Numbered from the stretch's first letter, positions 3,581 to 27,719 are shown. The stretch is DNA of 64,000 nucleotides from Candidatus Cloacimonadales bacterium (GCA_963662275.1 OY759316.1:2595820-2659819), one strand, 5' to 3'. A program made the numbers and translations. The notes: generated from the sequence alone by a model not told the origin.

Positions 3581-4885
3581 ATGAAAGTAATCACGATCAG
3601 TTTTTGTCTGCTTCTACTAGTTTTTGGCTTATCAGCGTTAACTCAAGCAATTGATTTCAACAGTACAAGTGATTTATCGACTTATTTTAATCCTGGACCT
3701 GACAATGATTTTACAAACATCAGTAATAATGGTATTGGTGATACCGGATGTGTGCAAGTCTCCTATTTAAATATGGGTGAGACAAGAGTATATACTATGA
3801 AAACGGGATTGAATATTAACCAGATTGATACTCAATACACAATTAGTGCGTATTTTTATAATTCTTCCAATGGCGGTTATGCTGGTTTAGGTTTTTCCAC
3901 TGCAAATTCAAACATTAGTGGACCTGCCTGTAAAATTACCTCTTCTCCTGCTGTTGGAATGCAATTTTACGGTTCTGGGGCTACCTTTTATAATAATTTG
4001 ATTGGGCTTTACGGTGGTAGCTATTCTCCAGATATAGCCATGCCATCATGGTTTAGATTGCAGTATATTATCACTCCCAGGGGTGCTGGCTTATATGATG
4101 CAATGTATGTACTTCACCGATTTGATAATGCCGGGAACGTAATTTCATTAGTGTTTTCCCAAAGTACATCATTCACACATCTGACACTTGCAAATGGAAT
4201 GGTATATCCATATTTTGCTATAGATGGTCATAGATTCGACTATATTGATAATTTTGGAGTAGCAACTCCTAATGATATCGAATTACCTGTTACATTATCA
4301 TCTTTCACAGCAACTGTTACTTCACAGATGTTAGTAAACCTGCAGTGGATTACGGAATCTGAAACCAATAACCTTGGCTTCAACATCTATCGTTCCAATA
4401 ATTCCAACATCGAAAACGCTGTAAAACTGAACAGTGAGATTATTAACGGAACGAATACTACTACACAGCATAATTACAATTTCACTGATCCTGAAGTTGA
4501 AAATGGCTTAACCTATTATTATTGGATCGAAAGTGTTGATTTTAATAATGATTCGCATTTCAGTAATTATGCAACAGCTACAGTCACTGGAGCGAATGTT
4601 CCTATTATTCCACAGGCAACCGCTTTGAAAAACGCCTCCCCGAATCCTTTCCAATCAAACAGCAATACCAAGATCGGATTTGATGTAAAGTCCGGTGAAA
4701 TAGCGACTTTGACAATTTATAATATGCGCGGACAGGTAGTACAAAATTATACACGTTCAGAGGGAAGCCATGAAATTACTTGGAATGGACGTGATGCCCA
4801 GAATAAAGCATGCAGCGCTGGTGTTTATCTCTATAAGTTAAGTTCACCCAGTAGCTATGTTACAAAAAAGCTAATTCTTCAATAA
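3581..4885 (+). CDS. Secreted protein with T9SS (Por) C-terminal sorting domain
   Basis: N-terminal signal peptide MKVITISFCLLLLVFGLSALTQA; C-terminal PNPF...TLTIYNMRGQVV...GVYLYKL CTD motif; RBS GGAGGA upstream of the start. Confidence 0.8.
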   Translation: MKVITISFCLLLLVFGLSALTQAIDFNSTSDLSTYFNPGPDNDFTNISNNGIGDTGCVQVSYLNMGETRVYTMKTGLNINQIDTQYTISAYFYNSSNGGYAGLGFSTANSNISGPACKITSSPAVGMQFYGSGATFYNNLIGLYGGSYSPDIAMPSWFRLQYIITPRGAGLYDAMYVLHRFDNAGNVISLVFSQSTSFTHLTLANGMVYPYFAIDGHRFDYIDNFGVATPNDIELPVTLSSFTATVTSQMLVNLQWITESETNNLGFNIYRSNNSNIENAVKLNSEIINGTNTTTQHNYNFTDPEVENGLTYYYWIESVDFNNDSHFSNYATATVTGANVPIIPQATALKNASPNPFQSNSNTKIGFDVKSGEIATLTIYNMRGQVVQNYTRSEGSHEITWNGRDAQNKACSAGVYLYKLSSPSSYVTKKLILQ

Positions 4886-8381: not shown

Positions 8382-9500
8382 TTATTTCAACAGCAGCATC
8401 TTCCTGATATTGGTATTCTTACTATCGACTTTCAATCTGCAGAAATAAAGACCGCTGCAGACACACTTGCCTTCCTCATCTAATCCTCCCCAAAGAAGAT
8501 TGTGCGTGCCTGCAGCGTATGACATATCTGTTAATGTTTTCACTTTCTGTCCTTTCATATTATAGATTGTAATTTCAACTTGAGATTTGTTAGTTACATT
8601 AAAGCTAACAGTCGTCTCTGGATTGAAAGGATTTGGGTAATTGGTTAGCTGATCATGAGTAGTGAAAACACTCGTCTGATCATCGATTCCTGTTGCCAGG
8701 GATACTCTTACCCAGTCACCTGCGATATAGTAAGTTAACAGAATGGAATGGTCTCTTGAATCATACGTGGGATATACGAAGTGATTTCCGGCAAAGATCA
8801 ATGTCGGAGCTGAAGAGAAATTGGCATCTTCCCGATATAATCCTAATAGATAATAACCAGCGATATAGTAAGTACCATCTACATCCCTGACGATACCGTC
8901 AGGATTGTTAAGTGTGGTTGTTGCTAGTGTTGTAAATGTGGAATCGGAAAGACTCACTGCATAAATATGACTATTATAAGCATCACTGATGACAACAATG
9001 CGGTTGTTCTCTCTTTCCAGTAAAATGCCATTGGGTTTCACCAAACTATCGTTCGCCACGAAAGTCCAGTAAGAGTGATCACTGATTCTATACTTGTAAA
9101 TTGTATTCAGGCTTGGACACGAGATGAAGAGATGCCCCAATGAATCGGAAGCAATACTTGATAAATACTTTGTACTTTCTCCAGCAAAAGTGAAATTTAA
9201 AATCTGTTCATCTGTATTCAGATCATAGGCTATTAATTTACGTCCATTCCCAATCCCAAAGACAGTATCTCCCACGATTTCCATCCCATCAACAAAACCC
9301 GCATCCTGATCTAAATAAGTTTGATTTCCATCACTATCTATCTGTACTAGCGCTCCACCTCTTCCATTGGAAACCAATAAGCGATTACGAACAGCATCGA
9401 TAACAATCTTTTGAGGGTGACTGAGTAGATTTTGAGCCTGACTGAGTTGAGGAATTGTTAAGCAGATTAAGACGAAAATTAGCGTAATCATAGGTTTCAT
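8382..9500 (-). CDS. Secreted beta-propeller-like protein with T9SS C-terminal sorting domain
   Basis: NYPNPFNPETTVSF...ITIYNMKGQKVKTL...GLYFCRL CTD. The ORF track starts at 9554, but a signal peptide MKPMITLIFVLICLTIPQLSQAQ begins at the Met at 9500. Confidence 0.75.
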   Translation of the reverse strand: MKPMITLIFVLICLTIPQLSQAQNLLSHPQKIVIDAVRNRLLVSNGRGGALVQIDSDGNQTYLDQDAGFVDGMEIVGDTVFGIGNGRKLIAYDLNTDEQILNFTFAGESTKYLSSIASDSLGHLFISCPSLNTIYKYRISDHSYWTFVANDSLVKPNGILLERENNRIVVISDAYNSHIYAVSLSDSTFTTLATTTLNNPDGIVRDVDGTYYIAGYYLLGLYREDANFSSAPTLIFAGNHFVYPTYDSRDHSILLTYYIAGDWVRVSLATGIDDQTSVFTTHDQLTNYPNPFNPETTVSFNVTNKSQVEITIYNMKGQKVKTLTDMSYAAGTHNLLWGGLDEEGKCVCSGLYFCRLKVDSKNTNIRKMLLLK

Positions 9501-9582
9501 ATTTAGAATTTTTTGTATCTTTTCCGAACCTTGAACATCTTTCTTTTTCTTCACGCTTTGACTCCTTGCTTCCTGTTGAGAT

Positions 9583-10275
9583 TCAATTATTTTTAATCGC
9601 TGACATGAATAGATCTAAATACTGATAATAGAATTTCTCTTCATCAAAAACATCCTGGATTTGCTTGGTCTTTTCCGGACTGAAAGCTACATTCAGGATT
9701 GTCCTTAAAGTATATGCAAAGTACTTATCCAGGTAACCAGCATCAATGTTACCCCGTATGCTGTGATCCTGAATTCCTAATTCAAATGCATCCCTAACAA
9801 TGGCAATGATCCTATCGAGAAGATGGTCGAATTGATCATAAAGCTCCAACTCTATTTTACTCTTATCCAGTGAGTTGTAATCTTCATACAGATGCAGCTT
9901 GAAGTATCCCTGGTTCTGTTTATAGAAGTGATAATACTCTTCACCAAAAGCATAGATTTTAGCATAGCCCGTGCTCTTTCTATTCATTTTCTGGCTTAGT
10001 AATTCATATCTGCTTCTCATTCCCTCCAAGTGAATATGCATGAAGAGTTCTTCCTTGCTTTTTACGTAAGTGTAGAGTGTTGATTTGCTGAAACCTGCTG
10101 TTAAGGCAACTTCATCAATGGATGTATTTTCGTATCCTTTCTCAAAAAACAGCCTCTTTGCTACTTCGATAATAAAGTCTCTTTTCAGTTCTGCTTGTCT
10201 TTCTTTCAAACTTAACTGTTCCATAATACCTCTATTTTGTGAAATACTACTTACAGTTCTATAAATCGTACTCAC
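9583..10275 (-). CDS. TetR/AcrR family transcriptional regulator
   Basis: N-terminal HTH ERQAELKRDFIIEVAKRLFFEKGYENTSIDEVALTAGFSKSTLYTYVKSKEELF. Confidence 0.85.
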   Translation of the reverse strand: MSTIYRTVSSISQNRGIMEQLSLKERQAELKRDFIIEVAKRLFFEKGYENTSIDEVALTAGFSKSTLYTYVKSKEELFMHIHLEGMRSRYELLSQKMNRKSTGYAKIYAFGEEYYHFYKQNQGYFKLHLYEDYNSLDKSKIELELYDQFDHLLDRIIAIVRDAFELGIQDHSIRGNIDAGYLDKYFAYTLRTILNVAFSPEKTKQIQDVFDEEKFYYQYLDLFMSAIKNN

Positions 10276-10434: not shown

Positions 10435-12315
10435 ATGGCAGATACTTTAATTGATTCAGTATTATTGGATTTTTTTCTAACATCATCAGATCCCATTATT
10501 CCAATGGATAATGTCCATTTGATAAACGAATTCCTGTCAGCAAGCGATAATGAAGAAAAAACGGAATTAGCACAACGTTTAATGATTCAAACCATACGTA
10601 ACCTCGGTTTTGAAACACGCTGTATTGAAAGAATCCTACAGGGATATATCACTTCACTTTTAAAAGTAGATTACGGGTTCCGCTGGATAACAAAAGACTA
10701 TCGTTCTCATTTTCTGCATTCAGTCTATAATTATCTTACAGGTTTGTATTTAATGCGACATGATTTTCTCGGGAATATTCTTTTCTCTAAAATTGATTTT
10801 GAAGCTCTCGACAATATTTATACAAGTCCATCTTCTGAGTTACTACATTCATATCCTCGATGTGATTATGAAAAATTCCACAAGCGTTGGGCGATTGCAG
10901 CATTTTTCCATGATATTTCATATTTATCCCAAATTAGCTACAATGCAATGAATAAGGAAGCTAAGCACAATTTTCAAACGGATAATCAAGTGTTTTCTGT
11001 AAGTTTACCACATTTTGAAGATAATGTCCATATTGATGAGACATCGCAAATTAAACATCACTTAAGTGCATTAGTGAACTTAATTCCTCCATATTTGTTA
11101 CAACATAATGCCCTCGATATTATTAGCAGTCGTATAGCAGGCAGGCTCGGGACATTCGAAAATGCAGATATCAGGAGATCTTTAAAAAGAATAATTAAAG
11201 AGAATTTTAAAGGAGAATATGGATCACACGATATTTTAAGCGGTCTGTTTGCAATTAAGAAATATTACTATGAATTAAATTCATATTTTAATAGTACAGA
11301 AAATCCGATAACTAGTACAGAAAAAATACAAATCATTCAAGAAATGAAGGATTTTACAGATGCAATCAGCAATGCAGCTCTTCATCATTATGATAAATAT
11401 ACAGTCGGAATTTTCGAACCAACCAAAAAAGAAAAGATTTCCTGGAAAACATTACCATTATTGTATTTACTGATTCTTGTAGATGAATTACAGATCTGGA
11501 ATAGAGAATTAGTATGCGAATTCAAACCAATTGTTTATTATGATCTACAAATAAATGATACTGCATTAAGTGATTGGTTTAAGGATAATTGGACAAATAT
11601 GCTCCTGCGTTTTGTTCAATCATATCAAAATATTGACACTACAAAGTCAATGACCTTGGAAATACCTTTTACGAAAAATATGCTTAAGCAAATAGATTCA
11701 TTGAGAAGATTAGGTACACATGATCAATGCAAGATTACTAACCTAATTGAAAATTCTAATTATTCTTATAAAATTTATAATGGGAAACTATCAATATCTT
11801 TTGTAGTTTGTCCAGTATTAGCACAATTAGAGAATGTGATTAATTTTGAATTATCGAATTATGAAGTTTTACGAATTAAGAGTGTTCTCGAATCCAGTTG
11901 GAAAGAATTTAGTGCAAATCATCAGACATATTCACTTTTCATGGAATATCTGATGCTTTTTGAAGATTTGCTTGAGGAGAATAATACCAATAAGGCTTAT
12001 TCTATTAATAAAAACAATCTAATCAATAAATATCTCGTTAAATCTGACAAATTATATACACAATTAATTTCCTCAGATCAACTGTGGATACCTATCGAAT
12101 GCATAACTTTCAATCATATGAGCAGCTTTGATTCTTCCCATTTAGAGCAATTAGAATTAATGTATGATGGTAAAACTACACAAAATATACAATCAATCAT
12201 GGATCATTGTCTCAATGATTTTAAAAAACATATATCAATTAAAGGAATAAATAACCAGGCTCTTATTCATATCGTAGGTAAGATAAGAAACATTATTCAA
12301 AATTTTATAGCATAA
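10435..12315 (+). CDS. HD-domain (phosphohydrolase-like) protein, 626 aa, with a large uncharacterised C-terminal region
   Basis: Motif set RSHFLHSVYNYLTGLY (H...H), WAIAAFFHDISY (HD), GSHDILSGLF, LLILVDELQIW (D), in the order expected for HD/dGTPase-like domains. 15 bp upstream of the next gene. Confidence 0.55.
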   Translation: MADTLIDSVLLDFFLTSSDPIIPMDNVHLINEFLSASDNEEKTELAQRLMIQTIRNLGFETRCIERILQGYITSLLKVDYGFRWITKDYRSHFLHSVYNYLTGLYLMRHDFLGNILFSKIDFEALDNIYTSPSSELLHSYPRCDYEKFHKRWAIAAFFHDISYLSQISYNAMNKEAKHNFQTDNQVFSVSLPHFEDNVHIDETSQIKHHLSALVNLIPPYLLQHNALDIISSRIAGRLGTFENADIRRSLKRIIKENFKGEYGSHDILSGLFAIKKYYYELNSYFNSTENPITSTEKIQIIQEMKDFTDAISNAALHHYDKYTVGIFEPTKKEKISWKTLPLLYLLILVDELQIWNRELVCEFKPIVYYDLQINDTALSDWFKDNWTNMLLRFVQSYQNIDTTKSMTLEIPFTKNMLKQIDSLRRLGTHDQCKITNLIENSNYSYKIYNGKLSISFVVCPVLAQLENVINFELSNYEVLRIKSVLESSWKEFSANHQTYSLFMEYLMLFEDLLEENNTNKAYSINKNNLINKYLVKSDKLYTQLISSDQLWIPIECITFNHMSSFDSSHLEQLELMYDGKTTQNIQSIMDHCLNDFKKHISIKGINNQALIHIVGKIRNIIQNFIA

Positions 12316-12330
12316 TTATAGGAGGATAGC

Positions 12331-15300
12331 ATGGGAACTACGAAAATCTTGAAATATAATCAGGAAAGTATAAATTTTCTGAGAAGCTTGGAAGAGCATG
12401 TAAACAAAGCATATACTACTGACAGAAACTCTACAGCGAAGGAAAATACAGGAAAAATCAAGGAACTTCAAAGAAGACATGTTGGTTGGACTATGATTTC
12501 TTTTGAAGACGATTTTGTTACTAAACTTACTGAAATTCGATTAAATCAGGCAGAAACTAATAATGAAGAGGAAAAAATAATTAATGAAATTGATCAATAT
12601 CTATTGATGCTCTCGCTGTTAGATAATATCTTTTATGGCTATCCTTCTGAAAGATCAATGGAAGATTGTAATGGCAAGCCAATTAATAATCACCTAAATA
12701 ATTGGGTAAGAACATTTTATCATCTTACGCTCATAAATAACAAGGCAGGAGATGATGTAGATAAAAAAAAGGCACACGCATATGAAATTCAAATTTTAAT
12801 CAAGGATTTTATATCTATACCAAAGGATTTTGCCAGTTCCTATTTTGGGTACGATACCGGGATATCAGGTTTAAACCAACTCTTGATGGGTGGTTTTCTA
12901 CTCCCTGAGGACAGTACTGCAATGATAACAGTAGATGGTGAGTCTGGTGTTGGTAAAACAACTTTTGTGGTAAATTTAGTCTGTGCTATTCTGAAAAATT
13001 GTGGAGATACTGTTTTTAAACACAATAGAGATACAATAATACACAAACATGCTGAAAGACTTCCCATATTCATCGATTACTTCATATTAGAACAGTCTTA
13101 TAATAATATTAAACGATGCATAACCAACTTTAACTTACTACCCATTCTGAAAGATACCCATGACGTGGTAACAGCAAATCCAATTGATCCAAAGGATACT
13201 GTTTATTATGCTGAAGAACTTGATGGTCTTCTTAATATTTGCCAGAAAAACTCAAGAAAACTTGTTATGTCAATTCACCCTGTCCCTATGTGTTCTGCCG
13301 CAGATTTACTTCAACAGGTTCAAAAATGTGAAGAACCTTTTCAAGCAAAAAGCGTACTTGAAGATAGACACATCATTGTAATCGATTCAATCAATGCAGT
13401 TTTGGATATGGATATTGAGCAATCTAAATGGCGACAGGTATTACAGGCATTACGCTCTATACTTGGTGGAAAGAAATCTAAATGCCCAAATGAAGGAAAA
13501 AATAAAAAAGAAAACAATACAATATTGATCCTAACTCAAGAAAAAGACCCTTCCAAAAAGGATACAATGGTTGAGTATTTCTGCGATGTCGTCATGGGGT
13601 TTGAAAAGAAAAATATCAACGGTGAATACCTTCGATATATTGAATTGATCGAAAGCCGTTTTCAGGATATGTGTTTCGGAAGACATCCCTTCCATTTTTC
13701 AACTAAAGGGCAAGCTTCCTTTGGGATCTACCCTTCAGCCTCTGCTTTAATGGAATTAATTCCCAACCAATTAAAACAGATTCAGCCAGATAAAAAAACA
13801 CTTGAGTTTGGAATAAAAATCGATGGAATCCTGAAATTCTTTGTGAATACCCATTTGAAGAATAGCGGCATGAAACCATATTTTCTTAAGAATTCAGTCA
13901 GTAATCTCAATGGCGAAAAAGGATGTAATAAATCTGCATTTTCAAAGTTCTTTACACTAAGTTCATATCGGGATGAAAGATGGATATCCATGTCTGAAAG
14001 AGCATTTGAAAATGATCTTTACGAAACAGAAGTTACAGATAAGGAGTGCTATCATGAAATGAATTATTCTGAAAAAGAAGCTGACAAAATATGGAATGAA
14101 ATAAAAGAAATGAAACCATATCCAAAATCTTATAACCCTGCAAATCCTTCGGAAACTGAAAAGCATTGTAATCCGATAGATAAAGCAATCGGGATGATTG
14201 TAAAATTTGGGGAAAACTATGAAGAAAATGAACATGATGTGGTTATTGATGCACCTTGGGGAAAAGTAATCATACCAGCAAATGCATTAAAAGTAGAACC
14301 TAAATTCTGGGGGAGAGTATCAGATGTTATTTGTCATTTTGAAGTAAAAAATTTCTCTGAAGAATACTATCTTGAACAAATCATGGATGTCATTCGTGCA
14401 ATAGAATCATATCATGTATATGAAGAAATCCCTAAAACTTTTGAGAACTTGCTTAGAAGAATGAAATTATCAAGGATATTGTGGGAGAAGACTAGTTTAC
14501 GAGAACCAGAAGTAGAAGCAACTCCTAATAATGTGGAATTTAGCCCATCGTTTGCTATTTATAAAGATAAGGACTACATTAATGATAATTCTAATGTTAA
14601 AGTAGAAGATAGGAATATCTACAATTCATCTATTTTCTTCTATCATGAATCATTACCAATCAAAGTAAGAAGGTTGGTGTTGGATAATACAGAAAACCTG
14701 ATCGATATTTTCAAGCAAATCGATGCCCAGGATTTTATCACAACCATTACTCATTTCGGTTTGGCAAAGGGAATTACGATCTTAATTGTCAATCAAGTCG
14801 GTAGGGGATCTCGCAATCAGATCAATGACATTTGCAATGCCATTGCTGATAATATTTTTGAATTCCAGAGAGAATACTTTTGCGGAGGCTGGTATTCAGT
14901 ACTTCATATCAAGCGATCATCAAACAGTTGGCATAATCGAATGTACTATAACATTTATAAAAGGCACGATGAGCTTTTGGAATTGCAGGATACATTTTCC
15001 TTTATATCAAGTTTTCATAATGAACTGAAGGAGTTAATACCAATTCGTCTATTTCTCCCTGGAAAATCACAAGCTGAAATTGATATGTATGCGAATCTAT
15101 CTATTGCCTTAAATCCTTCAAATAGAGATTTTCCAGATATGAATTATAGTATTGAAAGAGATAAGAGATTACCATATAAGGATTCACACGAACAGTGGCA
15201 TACATATCTGAAAGAAATGATCATCTACAGTATGACACATCCGCAAGTGGAAGTAATTAAGGCAAGTGATCCATTTACGGACATTTCTATTATCATAGAA

Positions 15301-16629
15301 GATGAAAGCGTTAAGGATGCTTTGACGATTAGTTGTATTCCCGGTCACTTAATCAAAAGGTATAAGACAAATTTACTCAGGCTTACAGATTTTATCAATT
15401 TCAGTCCTCGGGACAACCAGCTTCCTTTCATTGATAATGCGGTTGATTTCATAGCTGATACTTGGATGGAAATTGGTAATCTCAATTCTACAACACCCAA
15501 CGGTAGATTCGGCAAGACTCATTACTACCTTAAACCTTCCTCTCTTCAATTTATCTCTAATGAGTCAAATAGAGACAATTGTCACTTTTCCTGGATAGAA
15601 CCTGACCTGCTTTTTAACCCTGTGATTGATATCAGCCATCACAGTGATTCTGATGTTCAAACAGCACATGCTCTTGCCTATCCTTTTTATATCAATCCAA
15701 GGTTTGATCTGATAATCCGCCATAAAGATGCTAAAGATGCTAAAGATGATAAGGTGAAATATCATTTCGGTTCGACAACGACAGAAGATTACTTCACATT
15801 TTTCATGGAGCTATTGTTTAAGAATAGGTCTATTAGGAATTCCGTGGCTGAATTTATAAGCAATGCAAGTGAATCAAGTATAGGATATCAAATAAATGAT
15901 ATTCCTTTTGCACAGAAAGATACAGAGGATATTACAAACCATACTTTTATTTCCAGAAACTGGTTTTCATCACACCAGCAATTTATTGATATTTTAAAAA
16001 GCAATTTATCCCCAGAAGAATTTAGTAATATGTGTTTTAAATATATCGTTCCAAAAGTATTCTCTTATTCAACCTGGTATTTAGGCGTACCACTTAATAG
16101 TCCGCGAAAAGACAGAGCCTGTGAGATTATTGTCAAAATGACTGAATATCATGATTTAGCGAATTTCCAACTGAATGGCATCGGTATTCAATTGGGAAAT
16201 TACGCTTTCAGGGATGAATGTTATAAATATTACCCTCATTTAGCATATCATGAAATTCTAACCGGAATAGGGAACATCCATTCTTTCCGTGATAATGCAA
16301 ATCATAATAGTACCGGTATTCCTTTGGCTTCCATGGATTGTTTTTATGAATTAATTACTCCCATTGGAGGTTTGCTGCAAAATGTACATCAAATGCTCAA
16401 ATCCACTATGTCATCTTGTCCTTTGAATAGCGATCTAATATCAAGGATTATTGGTCAAATTACTAATATTTTCACAGCATATACCTCGGACAATTTATGT
16501 AATGAATGCTATTTCAATTATCTGACAAATATAAATAGAGAAAAGTTATCTCGACGAGCCTGTGATTGTTGGTTAGGTGCGTTATTCGGTTTAGTACAAT
16601 CAGATTGTCCCGAGGAAAATAATTGTTAG
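12331..16629 (+). CDS. Giant (1432 aa) protein with tandem KaiC/RecA-like ATPase domains (first catalytic-looking, second degenerate) and a Cys/His-rich C-terminus
   Basis: TGISGLNQLLMGGFLLPEDSTAMITVDGESGVGKTTFVVNL (KaiC/RadA/DnaB-type Walker A context), HIIVIDSINAVL (Walker B), ILILTQE, GEYLRYIELIESRFQDMCFGRHPFHFSTKGQASFGIYP (KaiC C-terminal signature). Second copy ITILIVNQ...REYFCGGWYSVLHIKRSSNSWHNRMYYNIYKR has no Walker A. GGAGG RBS upstream. Confidence 0.6.
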   Translation: MGTTKILKYNQESINFLRSLEEHVNKAYTTDRNSTAKENTGKIKELQRRHVGWTMISFEDDFVTKLTEIRLNQAETNNEEEKIINEIDQYLLMLSLLDNIFYGYPSERSMEDCNGKPINNHLNNWVRTFYHLTLINNKAGDDVDKKKAHAYEIQILIKDFISIPKDFASSYFGYDTGISGLNQLLMGGFLLPEDSTAMITVDGESGVGKTTFVVNLVCAILKNCGDTVFKHNRDTIIHKHAERLPIFIDYFILEQSYNNIKRCITNFNLLPILKDTHDVVTANPIDPKDTVYYAEELDGLLNICQKNSRKLVMSIHPVPMCSAADLLQQVQKCEEPFQAKSVLEDRHIIVIDSINAVLDMDIEQSKWRQVLQALRSILGGKKSKCPNEGKNKKENNTILILTQEKDPSKKDTMVEYFCDVVMGFEKKNINGEYLRYIELIESRFQDMCFGRHPFHFSTKGQASFGIYPSASALMELIPNQLKQIQPDKKTLEFGIKIDGILKFFVNTHLKNSGMKPYFLKNSVSNLNGEKGCNKSAFSKFFTLSSYRDERWISMSERAFENDLYETEVTDKECYHEMNYSEKEADKIWNEIKEMKPYPKSYNPANPSETEKHCNPIDKAIGMIVKFGENYEENEHDVVIDAPWGKVIIPANALKVEPKFWGRVSDVICHFEVKNFSEEYYLEQIMDVIRAIESYHVYEEIPKTFENLLRRMKLSRILWEKTSLREPEVEATPNNVEFSPSFAIYKDKDYINDNSNVKVEDRNIYNSSIFFYHESLPIKVRRLVLDNTENLIDIFKQIDAQDFITTITHFGLAKGITILIVNQVGRGSRNQINDICNAIADNIFEFQREYFCGGWYSVLHIKRSSNSWHNRMYYNIYKRHDELLELQDTFSFISSFHNELKELIPIRLFLPGKSQAEIDMYANLSIALNPSNRDFPDMNYSIERDKRLPYKDSHEQWHTYLKEMIIYSMTHPQVEVIKASDPFTDISIIIEDESVKDALTISCIPGHLIKRYKTNLLRLTDFINFSPRDNQLPFIDNAVDFIADTWMEIGNLNSTTPNGRFGKTHYYLKPSSLQFISNESNRDNCHFSWIEPDLLFNPVIDISHHSDSDVQTAHALAYPFYINPRFDLIIRHKDAKDAKDDKVKYHFGSTTTEDYFTFFMELLFKNRSIRNSVAEFISNASESSIGYQINDIPFAQKDTEDITNHTFISRNWFSSHQQFIDILKSNLSPEEFSNMCFKYIVPKVFSYSTWYLGVPLNSPRKDRACEIIVKMTEYHDLANFQLNGIGIQLGNYAFRDECYKYYPHLAYHEILTGIGNIHSFRDNANHNSTGIPLASMDCFYELITPIGGLLQNVHQMLKSTMSSCPLNSDLISRIIGQITNIFTAYTSDNLCNECYFNYLTNINREKLSRRACDCWLGALFGLVQSDCPEENNC

Positions 16630-16795: not shown

Positions 16796-18137
16796 CTAAT
16801 TAAGATGCATGATTTTACGAACCTGAGTTTCCTCTCCTTGTATAGTTTTCAGGAAATAGATACCAGATGCCAGATCTTTTTCATTAATGTTCAATACCTG
16901 GTTGGGAAAAGCATCTACAGATTTAACAAGTTGACCTTTTAAATTATACAGGCGTAGAGTCACACTAGTGTTTGATCTGCTCTTGATCATCAAATGCAAA
17001 TCAGTTGTAAAAGGATTTGGAAATACGGTTACTGTCATCCTCTGAACAGAAGGAATATTACTATCATCATTCAATGTTGGAGGTTGCCATGTAGTGGTAA
17101 TCCGTTGCTCATATTCAGGGACAGAGTTATTCAAATGATAAGCTGTTTCCACAATTTGGTTACCGTCCTGTGAAACAGCAAATTCCTTTGATTGATAATT
17201 TACCCAATTCGGATCTGAAAAAGTTTGGGTAGTGATGGTGGATAGATGATTATTTTCATAAGTAAAGAGCAATTGATTTTGCATTAACCAATCATGGTCA
17301 TACCAGCTCTGATCAAGAAGATCATCAATCAAGGGAAAACTCTGATTCGATAAAATCCAATCATAAGGGTTATCTGTTTGTCCAATGATATCGTTGATAG
17401 AGCCAACAGACACTTCCAAGCCTTTTCCAAGAGTTATTGGTAAAAGATGGGAAATCAAATTGATGAACGAAACACCGGTTGTTGCATCGTTCGAGTTATA
17501 AACCCTGGTCACATTCTCATAATTTACCCAATTAAGTGAGTCCTGTGATGTCAGAATCAATTCGCTAATTATCCTACCTCGGTTATCCAGTTCAAAAGAA
17601 CTCTTTTTAAATATAGAGGTTTGAAAGCCAGGTTTCCAGGTATAAACTGTATCCAAATCCTGGTTATTATAGAGGATTCCCATGCGAAGATTATCATTGA
17701 ATATCCCCGTGAAGATGTCCTTATTTGCCAAATTCAGGGCAACGATTCGATTTTCAGAATCATACGATACTCTTAACCGTTGCACTGGATTCATTGGGGT
17801 AATATACACCATAGCATTCGTTACATAATGATGAGTAGGTTCATAACTGAATACAGTTTTGCTATTAATTATCCAACTACCGCTATTAATATCCCAGTTG
17901 TAGGTCAGAAGACTATCCACCGAATTGGTGACTGTGTCATTATAATAAAATTCATCCCTGGCATTTATATGCCAGCCGAAATTATCGATAATCTCACGTA
18001 CCTGGCTTAAAACCAGAGTATTACGATAATTATCTTTGACACCTGATTTCACAGCGATGCCAGAGAGATTATTACTGATGGAAAAAAATAATGTAGGAAT
18101 AACAAGAAAGCTCAAAAAAAGGTAAATATTCTTCACT
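16796..18137 (-). CDS. Secreted protein with T9SS C-terminal sorting domain
   Basis: C-terminal VFPNPFTTDLHL...LRLYNLKGQLVKSV...GIYFLKT CTD. Likely GTG start at 18137 (MKNIYLFLSFLVIPTLFF signal peptide) with a GGAGGT RBS; the ORF track uses a TTG at 18151. Confidence 0.7.
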
Positions 18138-18256
18138 AATGGTACCTCCAATCTTTAATAGATTGACTTGATTGGAAATAGTATGAATGTTGTCAAGTAA
18201 TTAACTATCGCAATATCAAATAAGAAATCATTCGGTTATCGGGAAGTATATTTATT

Positions 18257-19635: not shown

Positions 19636-20382
19636 TTATTCTTTCTTAATGCCATTGCGTTCTCTCATTGACACTTTACCATCGATAAAAATAGGATAGG
19701 AATCGTGTATAATCCGGTCAAGGATGGCATCGGCAAGGGTTTCCTGACCAATCTTCTCATGCCATCCTCCGGTTCTGAACTGAGAACAGAAGATCGTTGA
19801 TGAGTGCTGATGCCTCGCTTCGATAATCTCCAAAAGATCTCTTGCCTCTTGTTCTCTGAGTGGTGTCAGCAGCCATTCATCAAGTATCAGCAGTTTGATC
19901 TGCTTGTATTGTTTTATGACTTTCTTAAAAATACCTTCACCTCTGGCAACTGCCAGGTCATCCAGCAATTCGGGAAGTCGTATATATCTGACAGGATAAT
20001 AGTTCCGGCAGGCTGCTATCCCGAAAGCACAACCCAGCCAGGATTTCCCGTTTCCTGATGCTCCCATAATGATTATATTCCGATTTTCGCTGATGTAACT
20101 GCAGGTTGATAAACGGATAATCTCAGATCGATCCAGCTTTCTGTCATCATGATATTCTACGTCTTCAATACTTGCCTGGCTGAACTTCAAGTTTGCCTTC
20201 TTAATTAGCCTCTGCAGTCTGTTATTTTTGCGTCTGGCCCATTCAGCATCTACGAGCAGACTGAAGCGTTCTTCGAAAAGCAAATCCTTAAATGCACCAT
20301 CATGTAATTGCTGGCAGAAAGTATCAGCCATAGCACTCAAATGCATCTCGTGAAGCTTATTGACTGTTGATTGGCTGATCAT
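19636..20382 (-). CDS. istB: IS21 family helper ATPase IstB
   Basis: Walker A GASGNGKSWLGCAFG and IstB-like DnaC-type ATPase layout; overlaps the istA stop by 4 nt. Confidence 0.9.
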   Translation of the reverse strand: MISQSTVNKLHEMHLSAMADTFCQQLHDGAFKDLLFEERFSLLVDAEWARRKNNRLQRLIKKANLKFSQASIEDVEYHDDRKLDRSEIIRLSTCSYISENRNIIIMGASGNGKSWLGCAFGIAACRNYYPVRYIRLPELLDDLAVARGEGIFKKVIKQYKQIKLLILDEWLLTPLREQEARDLLEIIEARHQHSSTIFCSQFRTGGWHEKIGQETLADAILDRIIHDSYPIFIDGKVSMRERNGIKKE

Positions 20383-21965
20383 TTATTTTTCCTCCCGTAG
20401 TAGTCTGCACCTCTGGTAATACCAAAATCAGAAGCAGGATCATTCTTTGCAGTCTCTGCCGCATTATTGATCTTATCAAAACCCGTCTTGAGTATGGTTT
20501 GGATATTTTTATAACCGGGATTGGGTGTATAAGATAATGCCCTTTGACATGCACTTTCGAGCCTCTGCACAGAATACCTGTCAGCTGATTTCAGAAGTGC
20601 CATACAGGAACGGTATCCCTGCTGTTCAACACGATAGGATGCCAGAATAGACTTAATTACGATCATCGTATGTTCCCCTATTTCCTTTGCCCAGGAGATA
20701 AACCTCTCTGCATTCCATTCCTGATATTTCTGATGCTGTTCAGGCATATGTTCAGGGAGTGTCTGATACTGACCGGGATGACCAAATTTCCTGACATGGG
20801 AAGCGATTCTGTTGGAGTTATAGAAAACCTCGACAACTCTGCTTGTGATGCGTACATCCACATAGTATTTTATGTATTCATAAGGAACCGAATAGTACAT
20901 CTTATCCACGCTTATATGATAATTGAACTGTACTGTTGCCTTTGACCAGGCAGCAAGCTCATATGGCGACAATGACAATGGAATAAGCATGGGCTGTTCT
21001 TCTGCCTGAAAGACACTTTCTCTGCTTCCTTCTTTCTTTTGAAAGGGCTTGGTATTGAACTCTCCCAGTTTTTCCCTGATTGACATATTGAGTTCATGAA
21101 GCGAAAAGAATGTCTGGTTTCGCAAGGCAGCAATGATCCAGGTTGAGATGACTCCAACTGTGCCTTCTGCACTGGGCTTATCCTTTGGTCTTCTAACTCT
21201 GGCAGGTATTACCGCAGTATCGTAATAAGCAGACATTTCTCCATAGGTTCTGTTGATAACGGGAGTATACCACGACACATGGTCAACTCCCGTCTTAAGA
21301 TTATCAGGAACAAGTATTTTAGTAACTCCATTAAAGTACTTGAAGCTATTTATATGAGCCTGAATCCAGCTTTCCATATTCATGGAAAGAAAGGCTTCCA
21401 CATAGGAATAACCACTGTACGGGAGGGTTGCTACAAAAACATAGGCTTTGATCGGTTCACCGGTAATGTTGTTTTTGATGGCGGCAGTCTGTCCAGCCCA
21501 GTCCACTTCCAGCTTTTCTCCTGGTTTGTGTTTTATTCGCATGGTTGCTTTTGTCTTTTGTGAGTAATCATGGTAATGTTTGCAAAATTGCGTATACTTG
21601 TAGGGAATAGCCTGATTATTCCTGCATCCCTCAGAGTATTCATGCCAGAGTAGCGACAGTGTTACACCACTCTTGGCAAGTTCCTTGTGTATGTGTTCAT
21701 AATCAGGCATCTTCTGCGGGTTTGACGATAAGTAAGCCGGAAAGAGCTGCTCTTCGATCATCTCATTTGTTAATGTATCAGGAAGCGGCCATTCAAGGCT
21801 CTGGTCTGTTGCCCTTTGAATGATCATCGACACGTTATTGCGGGAACAGGATAAACTCGCCGCTATGCCTCGTCTGCTTATTCCCTGGCTGTGTAAGCGA
21901 AGGATCTCTCGGTAATTGGTCATTGCATTGACCTCCATGAATTGATTTACACTGATACAGTGCAT
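20379..21965 (-). CDS. istA: IS21 family transposase IstA (HTH + DDE)
   Basis: N-terminal HTH (ILRLHSQGISRRGIAASLSCSRNNV), about 528 aa, immediately upstream of istB. Confidence 0.9.
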   Translation of the reverse strand: MHCISVNQFMEVNAMTNYREILRLHSQGISRRGIAASLSCSRNNVSMIIQRATDQSLEWPLPDTLTNEMIEEQLFPAYLSSNPQKMPDYEHIHKELAKSGVTLSLLWHEYSEGCRNNQAIPYKYTQFCKHYHDYSQKTKATMRIKHKPGEKLEVDWAGQTAAIKNNITGEPIKAYVFVATLPYSGYSYVEAFLSMNMESWIQAHINSFKYFNGVTKILVPDNLKTGVDHVSWYTPVINRTYGEMSAYYDTAVIPARVRRPKDKPSAEGTVGVISTWIIAALRNQTFFSLHELNMSIREKLGEFNTKPFQKKEGSRESVFQAEEQPMLIPLSLSPYELAAWSKATVQFNYHISVDKMYYSVPYEYIKYYVDVRITSRVVEVFYNSNRIASHVRKFGHPGQYQTLPEHMPEQHQKYQEWNAERFISWAKEIGEHTMIVIKSILASYRVEQQGYRSCMALLKSADRYSVQRLESACQRALSYTPNPGYKNIQTILKTGFDKINNAAETAKNDPASDFGITRGADYYGRKNK

Positions 21966-22458: not shown

Positions 22459-23781
22459 ATGATTAATAAGAAGCAAATCAAAACCAGAGAAACCTTGCAA
22501 GTAAAATTGTTACAATTTCTGAATAATTTTAGAGAAACGCAATCTCTACCTGTGTATAAGTTCATACAGGATATCTGCTTAGGGATACTGAAAAGTAAAT
22601 CTGTAATTATGCTCCAAATAGCGAAACAGCTAAATGAACCAATCACGGTTAAAAAGCTCTGCGAACGTTTCACCCGACATTTGAATAAGAAGCCCTTAGG
22701 AGATAAGCTGCAAGCGGAAATAATTAGGCATCAGTGCCAGGGTTTTGATGATGAGACAGGCATCATAGTTGATGAAAGTGATATCGTAAAAACCAAAGCC
22801 AAAAAGATGGAGGGATTGCAGAAGGTGCGTGATGGCAGCACCGGCAGTCATGATCAGCAGGGCTATGCATTGCTGAATATAATTGCCTATCAGGCAGGCA
22901 GTACAGGCTATGAGATAAAACCCATCAGTTCAGACCTGATAGCCCGAAACATGGAACTGGATAGCGTCTCTCAGATCATGGAAGACCGGCTAGTGGGGAT
23001 TATTCTTGCAAGTGGTAACCGTGGAGTAACTATTTTCGACCGTGGCTTTGACAACCGAAATCTATTCAGCTTTCTGCATGAACATGGACTAAGCTATATC
23101 ATCAGATCAACAGGTGAAAGAAGTCTTATCATGGATGGCTGCGAACAGAACTTCATGGCAGTGGCAAAGACAGTGAAACTCGATCATACATTCAATCTGC
23201 AAGAATCAGGACAACAGATAAAATGTGGTTTAACGCGGGTGAAGCTGCGTTTGAATCCTTACCCTGTAAAATACCCTGATACTACAGATGCCTGGCTTAT
23301 TGTTGCACAGTTCAGTCCCGATGCTAGTGGCAGACAGGGATATTTCTATTTCATCTGCGACTTTCCGACACAACCTTATCTGACGGAAAATGCTATCATG
23401 GAGAAGGTTTTGCGGATGTATCGCATACGCTGGAAAATCGAAGAGGTCCATCGCCATATCAAGCAGGAATATGGTTGGGAAAAGATACAACTGAAATCAT
23501 ATACCCGTCTGAAAAACATGAACCAGCTGCTTCTGCTAGCTATGTGCTACCTGTATTCTCTGAAAAAGTATGCTGGCGTATTTTTAGATGCCTTCCCAAA
23601 TCTTATGAAATACTCAAATAAACAGTGGAAGCAGATATATGACTTTGTGTATTATCGTCTGTCAATGCTGATAGAGATGTGTTTTGCCACCGTGACAAGG
23701 TACAGGCTCAATCCTTTTGCAGGAAAATGGCTGGATAATCAGCAGCTAAAAATTCCTGGTTTGAAAAACGGGGGGATGTGA
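22459..23781 (+). CDS. DDE transposase, IS4/IS701-like
   Basis: Candidate DDE residues in IVDESDIVK, TIFDRGFDN, WKIEEVHRHIKQEYGWE; the C-terminal YR/K region is typical of IS4-type enzymes. Element ends not resolved. Confidence 0.65.
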   Translation: MINKKQIKTRETLQVKLLQFLNNFRETQSLPVYKFIQDICLGILKSKSVIMLQIAKQLNEPITVKKLCERFTRHLNKKPLGDKLQAEIIRHQCQGFDDETGIIVDESDIVKTKAKKMEGLQKVRDGSTGSHDQQGYALLNIIAYQAGSTGYEIKPISSDLIARNMELDSVSQIMEDRLVGIILASGNRGVTIFDRGFDNRNLFSFLHEHGLSYIIRSTGERSLIMDGCEQNFMAVAKTVKLDHTFNLQESGQQIKCGLTRVKLRLNPYPVKYPDTTDAWLIVAQFSPDASGRQGYFYFICDFPTQPYLTENAIMEKVLRMYRIRWKIEEVHRHIKQEYGWEKIQLKSYTRLKNMNQLLLLAMCYLYSLKKYAGVFLDAFPNLMKYSNKQWKQIYDFVYYRLSMLIEMCFATVTRYRLNPFAGKWLDNQQLKIPGLKNGGM

Positions 23782-24100: not shown

Positions 24101-25972
24101 TTGCTTTACAACGCAATAAGAGGTAACATGTCCGAATTGCAGAAGCCTGAGATCAAGCTGGAAGTAAGGAAGAACCTGAAGAAGCTTCTCCCCTATATCT
24201 GGAAGGACAAGTACCTTTTCCTCTTCGGGCTTATCGCCATGATCATCACTTCCGGCATGAGACTTTTAGACCCTCTTATCCTGGCTCATATCATTGATTA
24301 CAGCGTTCCCAAGCACAACATGAAGGATATGTTCACCTATGCCGGATACTTCATTGGTGTGATAGCCTTATCAGGCTTACTATCCTATATCCAGATCATC
24401 CTGCTCTCTCGATTGGGAATCAAGATCATTACTGAATTCAAAGGGCATATCTTTGATCATTTATTAAAGCTGCCAATTTCCTATTTTGATAAGAACGCCG
24501 TCGGTGAGATCATCGCCCGTGTAGAAAGTGACAGTGAACGCGTTCGCATGCTCTTCACAGACTTGTCCGTAGCGATATTGGGTAATATCATTTTCTTCAT
24601 TGGTATCTTCAGTGTGCTGCTTGTTAAGCAATGGAAAATCACATCACAATTGATTGTACCACTTATCGTTATCATCGTTCTTTATTCATTTGTCATTCGA
24701 TATTTGAATAAGTTCTATAAGCGTTCTCGTGTCCTAAATGCGGATATCACTGCCAAGCTGACAGAGTTTTTACAGGGTATGCCCATTATCCAACTGTTCA
24801 ATCAGCAGAAGCGAATTACTGCAAATTTATTCAAATCCAGCAACGAAAAGAAGGATGTGGATATCAAGGCTTCTTTTGTGGAATATGGCTTCCAAGGGTT
24901 CTTTTTCTTCGTTTTTAACATACTTTTCATGATACTCATCATCTTACTCTCGGCACCGAAGATCATCGCCCATACTATGACGATTGGAACTCTCATCGTG
25001 TTTACGCAATATATCGCCCGTGTGATCTGGCCTCTGATGAATATCTCGGAGAACATCACCAACATCCAGAGAGCTTTTGTTTCCCTGCAGCGTATCTTCT
25101 CCATTACTGAATTGAAGACAGAATATGAAACCCTGGAAGGGAATGCAGAGCCGGTCTTCAATCATTCAATCGAATTCAGGAATGTCTGGTTTGCCTATGA
25201 TGAAAATGAATGGGTACTGCAGGATGTGAGCTTCTTCATTCCCAAAGGCGGAAAGATTGCCCTCGTTGGAGCTTCCGGTAGCGGTAAGACAACCACAATT
25301 AGTCTTATCTGCGGTTTCTACCGAATCCAGAAAGGTGAAATTCTGATTGATGGTGTGAATCTCTACAGCCTGGATATGAAAAAATGGAGACAGAAACTGG
25401 GATTGATTCTCCAGGATATCTATCTCTTCCCGGGTAACATTTTAGAGAATGTACGCATCTACAATGATGAGATAGATCAGTTGCAGGTTGATAAGGCAAT
25501 TCGATTAGTGCAGGCACAGGACTTTGTGAACCAACTGCCACATGGCTTATACTCAGAGCTGGCTGAAAGAGGACAGAATATCTCTCAGGGAGAAAAGCAG
25601 CTTATAAGCTTTGCTAGGGCGATTTGCTTTGAACCGGAAGTCGTCATTATGGACGAAGCAACTGCTTCCATTGACCAGCTCACGGAATCCCGCATCCAGA
25701 ATTCATTGCACACTATGCTGGAAGACAAAACGGCTATTATCGTGGCGCACCGGCTTGCTTCCATACTGGATTCAGATGAAATACTCATGTTTCATGAGGG
25801 TAAGATCATCCATCGGGGAAATCACAATGAATTGTTAGAAACATCGATAGAGTATAAAAGACTTGTAGAATTGCAGTTCTTATCAAATACAAATGAAGAG
25901 AGTTCGCCAAACCAAGAAGAATTGGCGAAGCGGAATTCGCCAAACCGAGAAGAGGATGCCAGCCATGAATGA
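24101..25972 (+). CDS. ABC exporter, fused permease/ATP-binding subunit (MsbA-like), partner 1
   Basis: Six N-terminal TM helices; Walker A GASGSGKTT, signature LSQGEKQLISFARAI, Walker B VIMDEATASID. Confidence 0.9.
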   Translation: MLYNAIRGNMSELQKPEIKLEVRKNLKKLLPYIWKDKYLFLFGLIAMIITSGMRLLDPLILAHIIDYSVPKHNMKDMFTYAGYFIGVIALSGLLSYIQIILLSRLGIKIITEFKGHIFDHLLKLPISYFDKNAVGEIIARVESDSERVRMLFTDLSVAILGNIIFFIGIFSVLLVKQWKITSQLIVPLIVIIVLYSFVIRYLNKFYKRSRVLNADITAKLTEFLQGMPIIQLFNQQKRITANLFKSSNEKKDVDIKASFVEYGFQGFFFFVFNILFMILIILLSAPKIIAHTMTIGTLIVFTQYIARVIWPLMNISENITNIQRAFVSLQRIFSITELKTEYETLEGNAEPVFNHSIEFRNVWFAYDENEWVLQDVSFFIPKGGKIALVGASGSGKTTTISLICGFYRIQKGEILIDGVNLYSLDMKKWRQKLGLILQDIYLFPGNILENVRIYNDEIDQLQVDKAIRLVQAQDFVNQLPHGLYSELAERGQNISQGEKQLISFARAICFEPEVVIMDEATASIDQLTESRIQNSLHTMLEDKTAIIVAHRLASILDSDEILMFHEGKIIHRGNHNELLETSIEYKRLVELQFLSNTNEESSPNQEELAKRNSPNREEDASHE

Positions 25973-27719
25973 GCATATTCGTTGGATAGGTAAACGCTGG
26001 TGGTCTAACCGGTATTATATCTTTTTACTGCTGCTAATGACATTGGTCAGCTCAGCAGTGGCGATCGGTTATCCTTTCCTTTTCAAGAAGCTGATCGATG
26101 TGCTCAATGCTATTCTTCTCCATCCAGACAAGTATCCGAGTCCGATGAAAGAAGTGTATAAAATATGCTGGTTCTTCCTCTGGGTAGGTGTGGCACAATT
26201 TATCTCCGCTTTCTATCCCGCAATGCGTGCATATATGAATCAGTACTTCGAACATCACTTGAGAATGGAGTTCTTTACGTATTGTACGAAAAAGGATTAC
26301 AAATTCTTCAATCACTTCCGTACAGGTGATTTGGTTACTCGCTTAACCAATGATTTGAGTGACTTCCCAAAGATCGGCTGGTTCCTCTGCTCCGGTATTT
26401 TCAGAGCACTGAGTTCCTTTTCCAGTATCTTTTTTAGTCTAATCGTCATGTTCAACCTGCATTGGAAACTGACCTTGCTATCTGTTGCCCCATTACCCCT
26501 GATGATGGTGATCTTCTACATTACTTCCAATCGTCTGTATCAGAACTTTCAGAAAAACCAGCAGGCAATCAGTAATATCAATAGTCAATTGGAGATGAGC
26601 TTTTCCGGTGTAAGAATCATTAAGTCCTTTGTCTGTGAAGAGAAGTATCAACGGTTTTTCAATATCGCTCTTCAGAAACGTTTCAAGACTGAGATGTCCG
26701 TTATCAAGCTGAATGCCGTTCTCGGTTTGATCTACCAGTATATTGGCTACATAGCACAGATATCTGTGATCGTGTTCGGTGGTTACCTTGTCGTGAAAGG
26801 TGAAATTACCGTTGGTACCTTCGTAGTATTCTATACTTATCTTTCCATGATGATCTATCCGCTATTGGATTTACCCCAGCTCTTTGTATCCGGCAAGCAG
26901 GCATTTGTTTGCATCGACCGCCTGGAAGAGATGAAGGACTTCCCCACTTCCTATACTAGCGAAACAGGTTTAAAGAAGATAGATCATTTGGAGTCCATAG
27001 AATTCAGGAATGTGAGCTTCCAATATAATGAGAAAACAAATATGATCCTGGATAATGTATCCTTCCGTTTAGAAAAAAGTGAAAAAACACTGATACTCGG
27101 AGCAATCGGTACTGGGAAATCAACAATACTGGGATTGATCACAGGTATTTTGAAACCCGAAGCAGGCGGTATATTCGTGAATGACATGCCAATTGAAGAT
27201 ATCGACCTGGTTTCCCTGCGTTCCAAGATAGGTTATGTTCCGCAAGAACCTCTGCTATTCACAGGAAGTATCAAGGAAAATATCCATTTCGGCAATGAAG
27301 CCCTTGACCAGGAATGGTATGATAAAGTACTGCATGCTTCTCAAATGTATGAAGAGATAGAACAATTCAAAGACAAGGACGAAACCTTACTTGGGCAGCG
27401 TGGAGTCAGTGTGTCCGGTGGTCAGAAACAGAGAATTGCCATTGCGAGGGCATTATCACGTCAGCCTGAGCTGCTGATATTTGATGATATTACAGCCAGC
27501 CTGGATGCTGATAATGAACAGAAACTCTGGAATGATATTCTACAGATATACCCTGATGTGACCTCCCTGATGGTATCGCATAGGTTATCAACTCTTCGAT
27601 ATGCGGATAGTGTGATCTTCCTTGATTCAGATCATAGACTTGTGAAGTCATCGCATGAAGAGCTCCTGGCAAATGATTCAGCCTACCAGACATTCATGCT
27701 GGAGCGGGAGAAAACGTAG
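25965..27719 (+). CDS. ABC exporter, fused permease/ATP-binding subunit, partner 2
   Basis: GAIGTGKSTIL, VSGGQKQRIAIARAL, LIFDDITASLD. Start placed at ATG 25965 (MNEHIRW), overlapping the upstream stop as ATGAATGA with a GAGGA RBS; the ORF track starts earlier at 25893. Confidence 0.85.
   Translation: MNEHIRWIGKRWWSNRYYIFLLLLMTLVSSAVAIGYPFLFKKLIDVLNAILLHPDKYPSPMKEVYKICWFFLWVGVAQFISAFYPAMRAYMNQYFEHHLRMEFFTYCTKKDYKFFNHFRTGDLVTRLTNDLSDFPKIGWFLCSGIFRALSSFSSIFFSLIVMFNLHWKLTLLSVAPLPLMMVIFYITSNRLYQNFQKNQQAISNINSQLEMSFSGVRIIKSFVCEEKYQRFFNIALQKRFKTEMSVIKLNAVLGLIYQYIGYIAQISVIVFGGYLVVKGEITVGTFVVFYTYLSMMIYPLLDLPQLFVSGKQAFVCIDRLEEMKDFPTSYTSETGLKKIDHLESIEFRNVSFQYNEKTNMILDNVSFRLEKSEKTLILGAIGTGKSTILGLITGILKPEAGGIFVNDMPIEDIDLVSLRSKIGYVPQEPLLFTGSIKENIHFGNEALDQEWYDKVLHASQMYEEIEQFKDKDETLLGQRGVSVSGGQKQRIAIARALSRQPELLIFDDITASLDADNEQKLWNDILQIYPDVTSLMVSHRLSTLRYADSVIFLDSDHRLVKSSHEELLANDSAYQTFMLEREKT

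Follow-up and report, generated by a model that had tools for sequence, protein, structure and literature searches.

A predicted tandem KaiC-type ATPase with a MalE-like C-terminal domain, encoded together with a conserved partner gene in a Candidatus Cloacimonadales genome

KaiC-type ATPases are clock proteins and small signalling switches, and solute-binding proteins (SBPs) are periplasmic receptors. The archaeal KaiC-like 'hub' ATPases are said to have been proposed as slow switches or timers, and for the archaeal and bacterial single-domain KaiC-like ATPases, Makarova and colleagues (mBio, 2017) have reportedly proposed a role as signalling switches, the modules fused to them or encoded beside them being diverse. 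In our literature search, neither a described fusion of a KaiC-like protein to an SBP domain nor any report connecting KaiC-like proteins with an anti-phage or defense system was found. Here we describe a gene in a 64,000-nucleotide (nt) stretch of DNA from a Candidatus Cloacimonadales bacterium (GCA_963662275.1 OY759316.1:2595820-2659819), the whole of which is referred to as the window hereafter. The gene lies at positions 12331–16629, and its 1432-amino-acid (aa) product appears to join two KaiC-type domains to a MalE-like SBP domain. The product shares its Pfam family with the single-domain KaiC-like ATPases (PH0186, 2zts; SSO2452, 2w0m; ArlH/FlaH; GvpD; the RAD55 group) and gives weak direct matches to them, but those proteins mostly consist of one domain of about 230–280 aa.

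The gene is a single uninterrupted open reading frame (ORF) of the plus strand, as an earlier sequence-based note on this DNA (the original prediction) had held. Its product is conserved from end to end in 5–6 homologues at 30–62% identity, so that a chance ORF can be dismissed and the gene regarded as real. Neither a signal peptide nor a membrane segment was predicted in the 1432-aa protein. Four parts can be distinguished, very probably correctly, in this soluble protein: an N-terminal region that varies, an ATPase domain of the KaiC/RecA type, a further KaiC-type domain, and a MalE-like domain that is followed by a CxxC...C knuckle. The MalE-like C-terminal domain (C-domain) is the main new result of the analysis. 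The features of the gene and of the partner gene upstream of it are given below.

10435..12315 (+): partner gene, 626 aa, separated by 15 nt from the large gene that follows
12331..16629 (+): large ORF, with AGGAGG 6 nt 5' of the ATG
12331..12825 (+): N-terminal region, aa 1–165, poorly conserved (mean column identity 36%)
12826..13791 (+): KaiC-like ATPase domain 1, aa 166–487, from PF06745 and a profile against PDB KaiC
12937..12960 (+): Walker A of domain 1, GESGVGKT, aa 203–210 (canonical GxxxxGK[ST])
13090..13095 (+): E254-Q255 of domain 1, aligned by eye with the catalytic EE pair of KaiC
13372..13389 (+): Walker B of domain 1, IIVIDS, aa 348–353 (canonical hhhhD)
aa 441–445 (+): ESRFQ of domain 1
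13792..15021 (+): KaiC-like domain 2, aa 488–897, probably degraded and expanded by inserts, from profiles and distant relatives
13912..13935 (+): deviant P-loop of domain 2, GEKGCNKS, aa 528–535
14665..14697 (+): Walker-B-like strand of domain 2, VRRLVLDNTEN, aa 779–789
14773..14937 (+): late KaiC strands of domain 2, ITILIVNQ...HIKRSSNSWHN, aa 815–869
15022..16485 (+): predicted family-1 SBP domain (MalE-like, periplasmic-binding-protein (PBP) type II), aa ~898–1385, from the 16-sequence profile A9
within this C-domain (+): IPIRLFLPG, aa 903–911; AYPFYINPR, aa 1116–1124; TTEDYF, aa 1150–1155
within this C-domain (+): RNWFSSHQ, aa 1209–1216; WYLGVPLNSPRKD, aa 1249–1261; GIGIQL, aa 1283–1288
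16486..16626 (+): short Cys-containing tail, aa 1386–1432, with C1390-x2-C1393 at nt 16498–16509

Three of these features were absent from the original prediction. One is the MalE-like domain, another is the start of domain 2, which lies about 300 aa before the segment seen there and carries the deviant P-loop, and the last is the conserved upstream partner. The motifs that had been named were all recovered, with coordinates displaced by only a few bases: GESGVGKT, placed at ~12941–12967 as GESGVGKTT, lies at the Walker A position listed above; IIVIDSINAVL, placed at ~13369–13399, lies at aa 348–358 (nt 13372–13404); ILILTQE lies at aa 398–404; and the second late-KaiC segment, placed at ~14700–15000, was found as ITILIVNQ...HIKRSSNSWHN...YNIYKR at aa 815–880 (nt 14773–15003). 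The source annotations go no further than 'ATPase domain-containing protein', 'KaiC/GvpD/RAD55 family RecA-like ATPase' or 'hypothetical protein'.

The C-terminal ~450 aa, previously left without assignment, can now be attributed to a MalE-like SBP domain by the profile A9, which was built from 16 C-domains of this family and of a distant group retrieved by an exhaustive HMMER search. Against PDB, A9 matched MalE3 (6dtq, E=1.5e-12) and the trehalose/maltose-binding protein TMBP (1eu8, E=3.3e-12), and further 5ci5 (E=2.9e-6) as well as 6j9w, 5ysb and 7nbz (~1e-3). The alignment spans positions 108–411 of the 444 in the profile and residues ~92–388 of the 400-aa binding protein; over the ~300 aligned positions, the profile and the SBPs have in common the motifs 'vPyy.n..ll.y' and 'W.lGi...S.......a..fi.flts' and the terminal helices. 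The C-domains of this family and of the distant group were aligned by hhalign with a probability of 98.4% (E=4.9e-15), colinearity over the full length being seen at relaxed settings, and the HMMER E-values of the C-terminal stretches in the whole library ranged from 3e-5 to 2e-4. When the members were compared singly with Pfam, SBP_bac_8 was the sole family with several matches (3 of the 16 members; best E=0.0032), all under the thresholds. Large lineage-specific inserts occur in the C-domain of this family. Because the protein has neither a signal peptide nor a membrane segment, aa ~898–1385 are best read as a cytoplasmic, internal MalE-like domain and not as a transporter receptor.

Domain 1 had already been proposed to be KaiC-like, and this is well borne out: it scored 47 bits against the Pfam KaiC family PF06745 (curated cutoff 26.6; E=2.8e-12). 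A profile of 6 family members found 43 PDB sequences at E<=1e-3, all of them KaiC or archaeal KaiC-like proteins, with a best E of 2.1e-9. Eight residues are invariant among the 6 homologues (G203, G206, G208, K209, T210, E254, D352 and S353). E254 was placed by eye on the first of the two catalytic glutamates of KaiC. On sequence grounds, domain 1 appears to be equipped with what an active ATPase needs.

Aa 488–897 are most reasonably read as a second, degraded copy of the KaiC/RecA-type domain. Several lines agree on this reading and are the reason for adopting it. One is that the family profile of aa 488–905 matched the CII half of KaiC in PDB (E=0.004), in an alignment that puts VRRLVLDNTEN at the Walker B strand and has the next strands matched by ITILIVNQ and KRSSNSWHN; the profile's GdrGcnKt falls over the CII Walker A in a colinear, non-significant stretch. 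Another is that the same region of the distant relatives gave a full-length PF06745 match (E~2e-18), while the fragment from this protein alone reached E=0.0012, under the threshold. The two groups are in turn connected by an hhalign probability of 98.5% (E=2.7e-15), and the P-loops of the distant group at the same position are either canonical (GSSSIGKS, GEGSSGKT, GTSGCGKT) or degraded (GPRGTLKS, GPGGALKR, GERGAMKY), the latter being in the same state as GEKGCNKS. The last line is structural: an AlphaFold2 (AF2) model of aa 166–905, of low confidence (mean predicted local distance difference test score, pLDDT, 47.6), was searched with Foldseek against PDB, and the 50 best matches were all full-length double-domain KaiC, aligned over ~725 columns of the 740 residues (E~3e-13; template-modelling (TM) score 0.23–0.34). 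This match is consistent with the reading and not decisive.

The original prediction had seen a CI/CII-like duplication with one half inactivated and with no Walker A in the second copy. A second, degraded copy is indeed supported, but the Walker A is deviant and not absent. The P-loop follows G-x2-G-x-N-K-S, in which the Gly before the Lys is replaced by Asn, or by His in some homologues, and the family-invariant residues of domain 2 include the Walker-A lysine K534 besides G528, G531, C532, E628 and D785. Domain 2 may have retained nucleotide binding. It contains ~150–200 aa of inserts, and is expanded by those between its P-loop and its Walker B. A direct hhalign comparison of domains 1 and 2 within the family gave E=0.005 but a probability of only 7%; since this alignment is unconvincing alone, the duplication is supported through KaiC and the distant relatives instead.

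The second gene of the locus is the 626-aa partner. A homologue of it (625–825 aa) is located directly upstream in every family locus examined (the window and L001, L003, L006, L007, L008, L018 and L023), while the flanking genes vary; the partner and the large gene travel together as a co-oriented two-gene cassette. The GC content of the operon (10435–16629) is 32.9%, as against 37.5% for the whole window, and a promoter and terminator scan of the operon gave no more sites than shuffled sequence. The conserved core of the partner covers aa ~37–376. In an alignment of 8 sequences (A10) with identity down to 21%, H92, H95, H159-D160, H265, D309, H317 and D350-E351 are invariant, and the order and spacing H...HD...H...H...D resemble the HD phosphohydrolase signature. 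Since no Pfam, NCBIfam or PDB match accompanies this resemblance, the partner is put forward as a putative HD-type phosphohydrolase by way of hypothesis. A HEPN reading (R-x4-H) of the partner motif YRSHxxH was also considered and dropped, because the Arg is not conserved: it is Gln in the divergent L023 homologue, in which both His are kept.

The family is extremely rare. An exhaustive HMMER search among 1.84 billion cluster representatives found only 28 proteins at E<=1e-3, and those with a named source come from Candidatus Cloacimonadota (including Syntrophosphaera) and from metagenome-assembled genomes (MAGs) of Aminicenantes. A second, divergent cassette is present in the same genome as the window (L001, 5821–12206; ENA sample ERZ21878447), with a partner of 723 aa (68% identical) and a large protein of 1401 aa (62% identical); its neighbourhood differs and contains a 6828-aa Fn3_assoc/CHB_HEX_C protein and an HU gene. 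In an Aminicenantes MAG (L007, 8001–15750), the homologue is split after codon ~913 by an element of ~2.5 kb that encodes an IS91-type Y2 transposase and a phage-type integrase. The 913-aa protein of this MAG had seemed to carry an 'alien tail'; an intact 1720-aa allele (P0049), recorded in another assembly, shows that the tail is a native insert of domain 2 and that the gene was split by the mobile element.

The distant group from the same search consists of proteins of 1160–1260 aa with the same overall layout. They keep the ATPase-ATPase-SBP chassis, and the genes upstream of it are exchanged. The neighbours of three distant relatives, and of one closer relative that has the same partner family, are as follows.

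L020, 5463–7300: CAP12/Pycsar-type TIR protein (PF10137, E=9.7e-8) and a 183-aa protein, beside a distant relative
L025, 336–4834: metallophosphatase-like gene, 386-aa gene and nSTAND1 NTPase, beside a distant relative
L019, 706–2430: resolvase/recombinase pair beside proteins without known family, next to a distant relative
L023, 4333–4950: NYN gene upstream of the closer relative (PADLOC HEC-09, E=1.9e-10)

In the window itself, the genes around the cassette are of other kinds.

3581–4885, 8382–9554 and 16796–18151: genes with type IX secretion system (T9SS) sorting, FlgD_ig or BACON domains, adjoining the cassette
9583–10275 (−): TetR-family regulator, divergent, ~160 bp upstream of the partner
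19636–21965 (−) and 22459–23781 (+): IS21-type pair, namely IstB (PF01695, E=2e-57) and an IstA-like transposase (Mu-transposase C-terminal domain), followed by a separate DDE_Tnp_1 transposase
24101–27719: ATP-binding-cassette (ABC) exporter pair, downstream

The IS21-type pair and the DDE_Tnp_1 transposase are 3–6 kb downstream of the cassette. T9SS, FlgD_ig or BACON genes adjoin the cassette in L003, L006, L007 and L008 as well, and the ABC exporter pair, whose genes are exporter-type ABC_membrane + ABC_tran fusions, lies directly downstream in L003, L004, L005 and L009. These adjacencies could be due to chance, to shared ancestry of the region or to a functional link. The TetR gene occurs in the window locus only and is absent from the related loci, and neither the window nor the related loci showed a neighbour from the KaiA or KaiB Pfam families. 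Elsewhere in the window, a TPR-repeat protein with a C-terminal HATPase_c domain is encoded at 1039–3024 (−), unrelated to the cassette.

By analogy, the large protein may be a ligand-gated ATPase switch that controls the partner as its effector; we put the probability of this at roughly 0.4. The tandem KaiC-type domains would stack as a double-ring oligomer, as in KaiC and other RecA-superfamily ATPases, with domain 1 hydrolysing ATP and domain 2 forming a tier that is either structural or regulatory through nucleotide binding. As a cytoplasmic 'Venus-flytrap' sensor, the MalE-like domain would close on a small ligand, possibly a sugar or a nucleotide-derived signal. Its closure would be passed to the ATPase rings and bias their state, and on this state would depend whether the partner, putatively a metal-dependent hydrolase or nuclease of the HD type, is active. 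As to what such a cassette is for, a sensor-effector module of the conflict or defence type, and not a housekeeping one, is tentatively suggested as the likeliest role because distant relatives swap partners and because the cassette occurs rarely and patchily and has mobile elements close by; we rate this role as possible and somewhat doubtful. The hints of mobility and conflict comprise the paralogous cassettes, the low GC of the operon, the insertion sequence (IS) elements, the homologue split by a mobile element, and the TIR, nSTAND1, resolvase/recombinase and NYN neighbours. It is equally tentative to regard the cassette as the founding example of a new conflict or defence class, made up of a double-ring KaiC-type ATPase, a MalE-like sensor and an exchangeable effector (HD-like, TIR or nSTAND-associated).

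A number of points weigh against a sensor-switch of the defence type. For both the oligomeric state and the way in which the domains are coupled, the account is drawn purely from analogy, and the AF2 model that covers the two ATPase domains has low confidence (pLDDT 47.6; TM 0.23–0.34). The SBP assignment is transitive for this protein's own family, being reached through the distant group; the family-only C-terminal profile found no match in PDB, and the AF2 model of aa 896–1432 (5-sequence alignment; mean pLDDT 33) is unusable. The partner matched no family in Pfam, NCBIfam, PADLOC or PDB, whether searched as a single sequence or with full-length and N-terminal-domain profiles, and its HD reading draws solely on motif spacing. 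In PADLOC-DB v2, the window proteins gave only a weak P-loop match of the ATPase to mad8 (E=0.0056) and none for the partner; the same held for the relatives. Viral contigs and plasmids yielded no relatives. The neighbours of the window copy are T9SS cargo, the TetR regulator and a peptidase, with no known defence genes flanking it, and we know of no defence system in which SBP-type sensors are established.

Several of these points favour a housekeeping signalling role, in which a sugar or metabolite of the cytoplasm would be sensed by the MalE-like domain, and the KaiC-like ATPase, as a slow switch or timer, would regulate the physiology of carbohydrates or of the cell surface; the partner would then be a phosphohydrolase of second messengers or nucleotides. 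Among PDB entries, the C-domain is matched best by sugar binders (MalE3, the trehalose/maltose-binding protein and a sulfoquinovosyl-glycerol binder), the T9SS/BACON/FlgD_ig neighbours of the window and of four further loci, together with the ABC exporter pair, look like partial synteny in Cloacimonadota-type genomes, a divergent TetR regulator is present in the window, and PADLOC gave no match. However, the family is too rare and patchy for core regulation, TIR and nSTAND1 partners of the distant relatives are not typical of metabolic regulation, and the large protein showed neither a DNA-binding nor an output domain; as these genomes are very rich in T9SS cargo genes, the adjacency of such genes may be by chance. 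We consider this role unlikely. A nucleic-acid motor coupled to a nuclease is distinctly less likely: the tandem RecA-type rings would translocate, as DnaB and RadA/Sms do, and deliver or activate an HD nuclease partner, the SBP-like domain being a repurposed scaffold or substrate clamp and not a small-molecule sensor. Cas3 follows such a logic, combining an HD nuclease with an ATP motor. KaiC-type domains do belong to the RecA superfamily, with weak secondary matches here to the DnaB_C and RecA models; the partner has HD-like invariant residues; and the heavy inserts in the SBP-like domain are compatible with a loss of classical ligand binding. Yet the best and dominant matches are to KaiC proper and not to helicases, motifs for DNA binding were not identified, the partner's assignment to the HD type is unconfirmed, and the distant relatives pair the chassis with TIR or nSTAND, not with nucleases.

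The two ends of the protein bear on one further alternative, the original prediction's own picture of a KaiC-like enzyme with an inactivated second half and a Cys/His-rich, metal-binding effector module of ~120 aa. Its tandem KaiC-like architecture is correct, and a conserved CxxC with a further Cys does stand at the extreme C-terminus and could bind metal. The stretch is however not Cys/His-rich as claimed. The last 120 aa contain 8 Cys and 3 His, the His being at background level, and the enrichment of Cys amounts to 6 in the last 53 aa, a density that 263 of 5000 shuffled versions of the protein reached at some point and therefore marginal. Nor is a module of that size supported: residues 1313–1385 align with the terminal helices of SBPs, so that most of the stretch is SBP-like helices, and the conserved part is confined to a terminal CxxC(x5–8)C. 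The CxxC is invariant in the family (C495 and C498 of alignment A5) and is followed in this protein by C1411, C1413, C1426 and C1432; only the CxxC and one later Cys are conserved, these three lying within ~15 residues. CxxC(x5–8)C is found in most homologues, including several distant ones, and is absent from the distant relatives P0026, P0032 and P0034. This short element may bind metal, possibly with a fourth ligand from elsewhere, while the original picture as a whole is very improbable. At the other end, aa 1–165 gave no significant match in PDB, and comparison with the N-termini found in the distant relatives showed that the two are not homologous (hhalign probability 0.2%).

The combination of a tandem KaiC chassis, a MalE-like domain and a dedicated partner is not described in the searchable literature. 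Should the sensor-switch reading be true, the protein would link the recognition of small molecules to a RecA-type ATPase ring in a new way; should the defence reading be true, prokaryotic immunity would gain an NTPase class and a sensor fold that are both new. In practical terms, ~950 residues that had been unassigned or ambiguous now have testable domain boundaries, and K209, K534, D352, D785, C1390/C1393 and, in the partner, H159/D160 are candidates for point mutants.

Compared with clock KaiC (PF06745; 2gbl, 7s66), the protein is alike in having two tandem RecA-type domains per chain, in the Walker A (GxxGxGKT), Walker B (hhhDS) and late strands of domain 1, in the KRSSNSWHN of domain 2, which resembles the KMRGSWH strand and is aligned to the CII half, and in the alignment of its low-confidence model to full-length KaiC over both halves. 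In contrast, its second P-loop is deviant where those of both KaiC halves are canonical, domain 1 has E-Q where KaiC has the catalytic EE (in the alignment made by eye), domain 2 contains ~150–200 aa of inserts, and extensions of 165 aa at the N-terminus and 535 aa, SBP-like, at the C-terminus have been added. No KaiA or KaiB genes are nearby, and the relatives are in Cloacimonadota and Aminicenantes, not in cyanobacteria. Because of the deviant second P-loop, the lack of kaiA and kaiB and the extra domains, the protein is to be regarded as a member of the KaiC Pfam family but not as a clock KaiC.

The C-domain has significant profile similarity over ~300 positions to the family-1 SBPs (MalE3, 6dtq; TMBP, 1eu8; SBP_bac_1/SBP_bac_8). 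It differs from them in being an internal domain of a cytoplasmic protein, without signal peptide or lipobox, in having no ABC importer permease genes adjacent, and in its large inserts, the single sequences staying below the Pfam thresholds. It is thus probably homologous to these proteins without their defining cellular role as the secreted or lipoprotein partner of an ABC importer. The sensor NTPase and effector systems (STAND/Avs, MalT-like switches and the TIR proteins of CBASS (cyclic-oligonucleotide-based anti-phage signalling systems) and Pycsar) differ in that their NTPase is of the STAND type, whereas that of the present protein is of the RecA/KaiC type, and in that their sensors are TPR or WD40 repeats, whereas the candidate sensor here is of PBP type II; moreover, the putative effector here is on a separate polypeptide and no PADLOC model matches. 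The likeness to these systems lies in the large NTPase with a C-terminal sensor and a swappable effector, in the adjacency of the distant relatives to CAP12/Pycsar-type TIR and nSTAND1 genes, and in a rare, patchy occurrence near IS elements.

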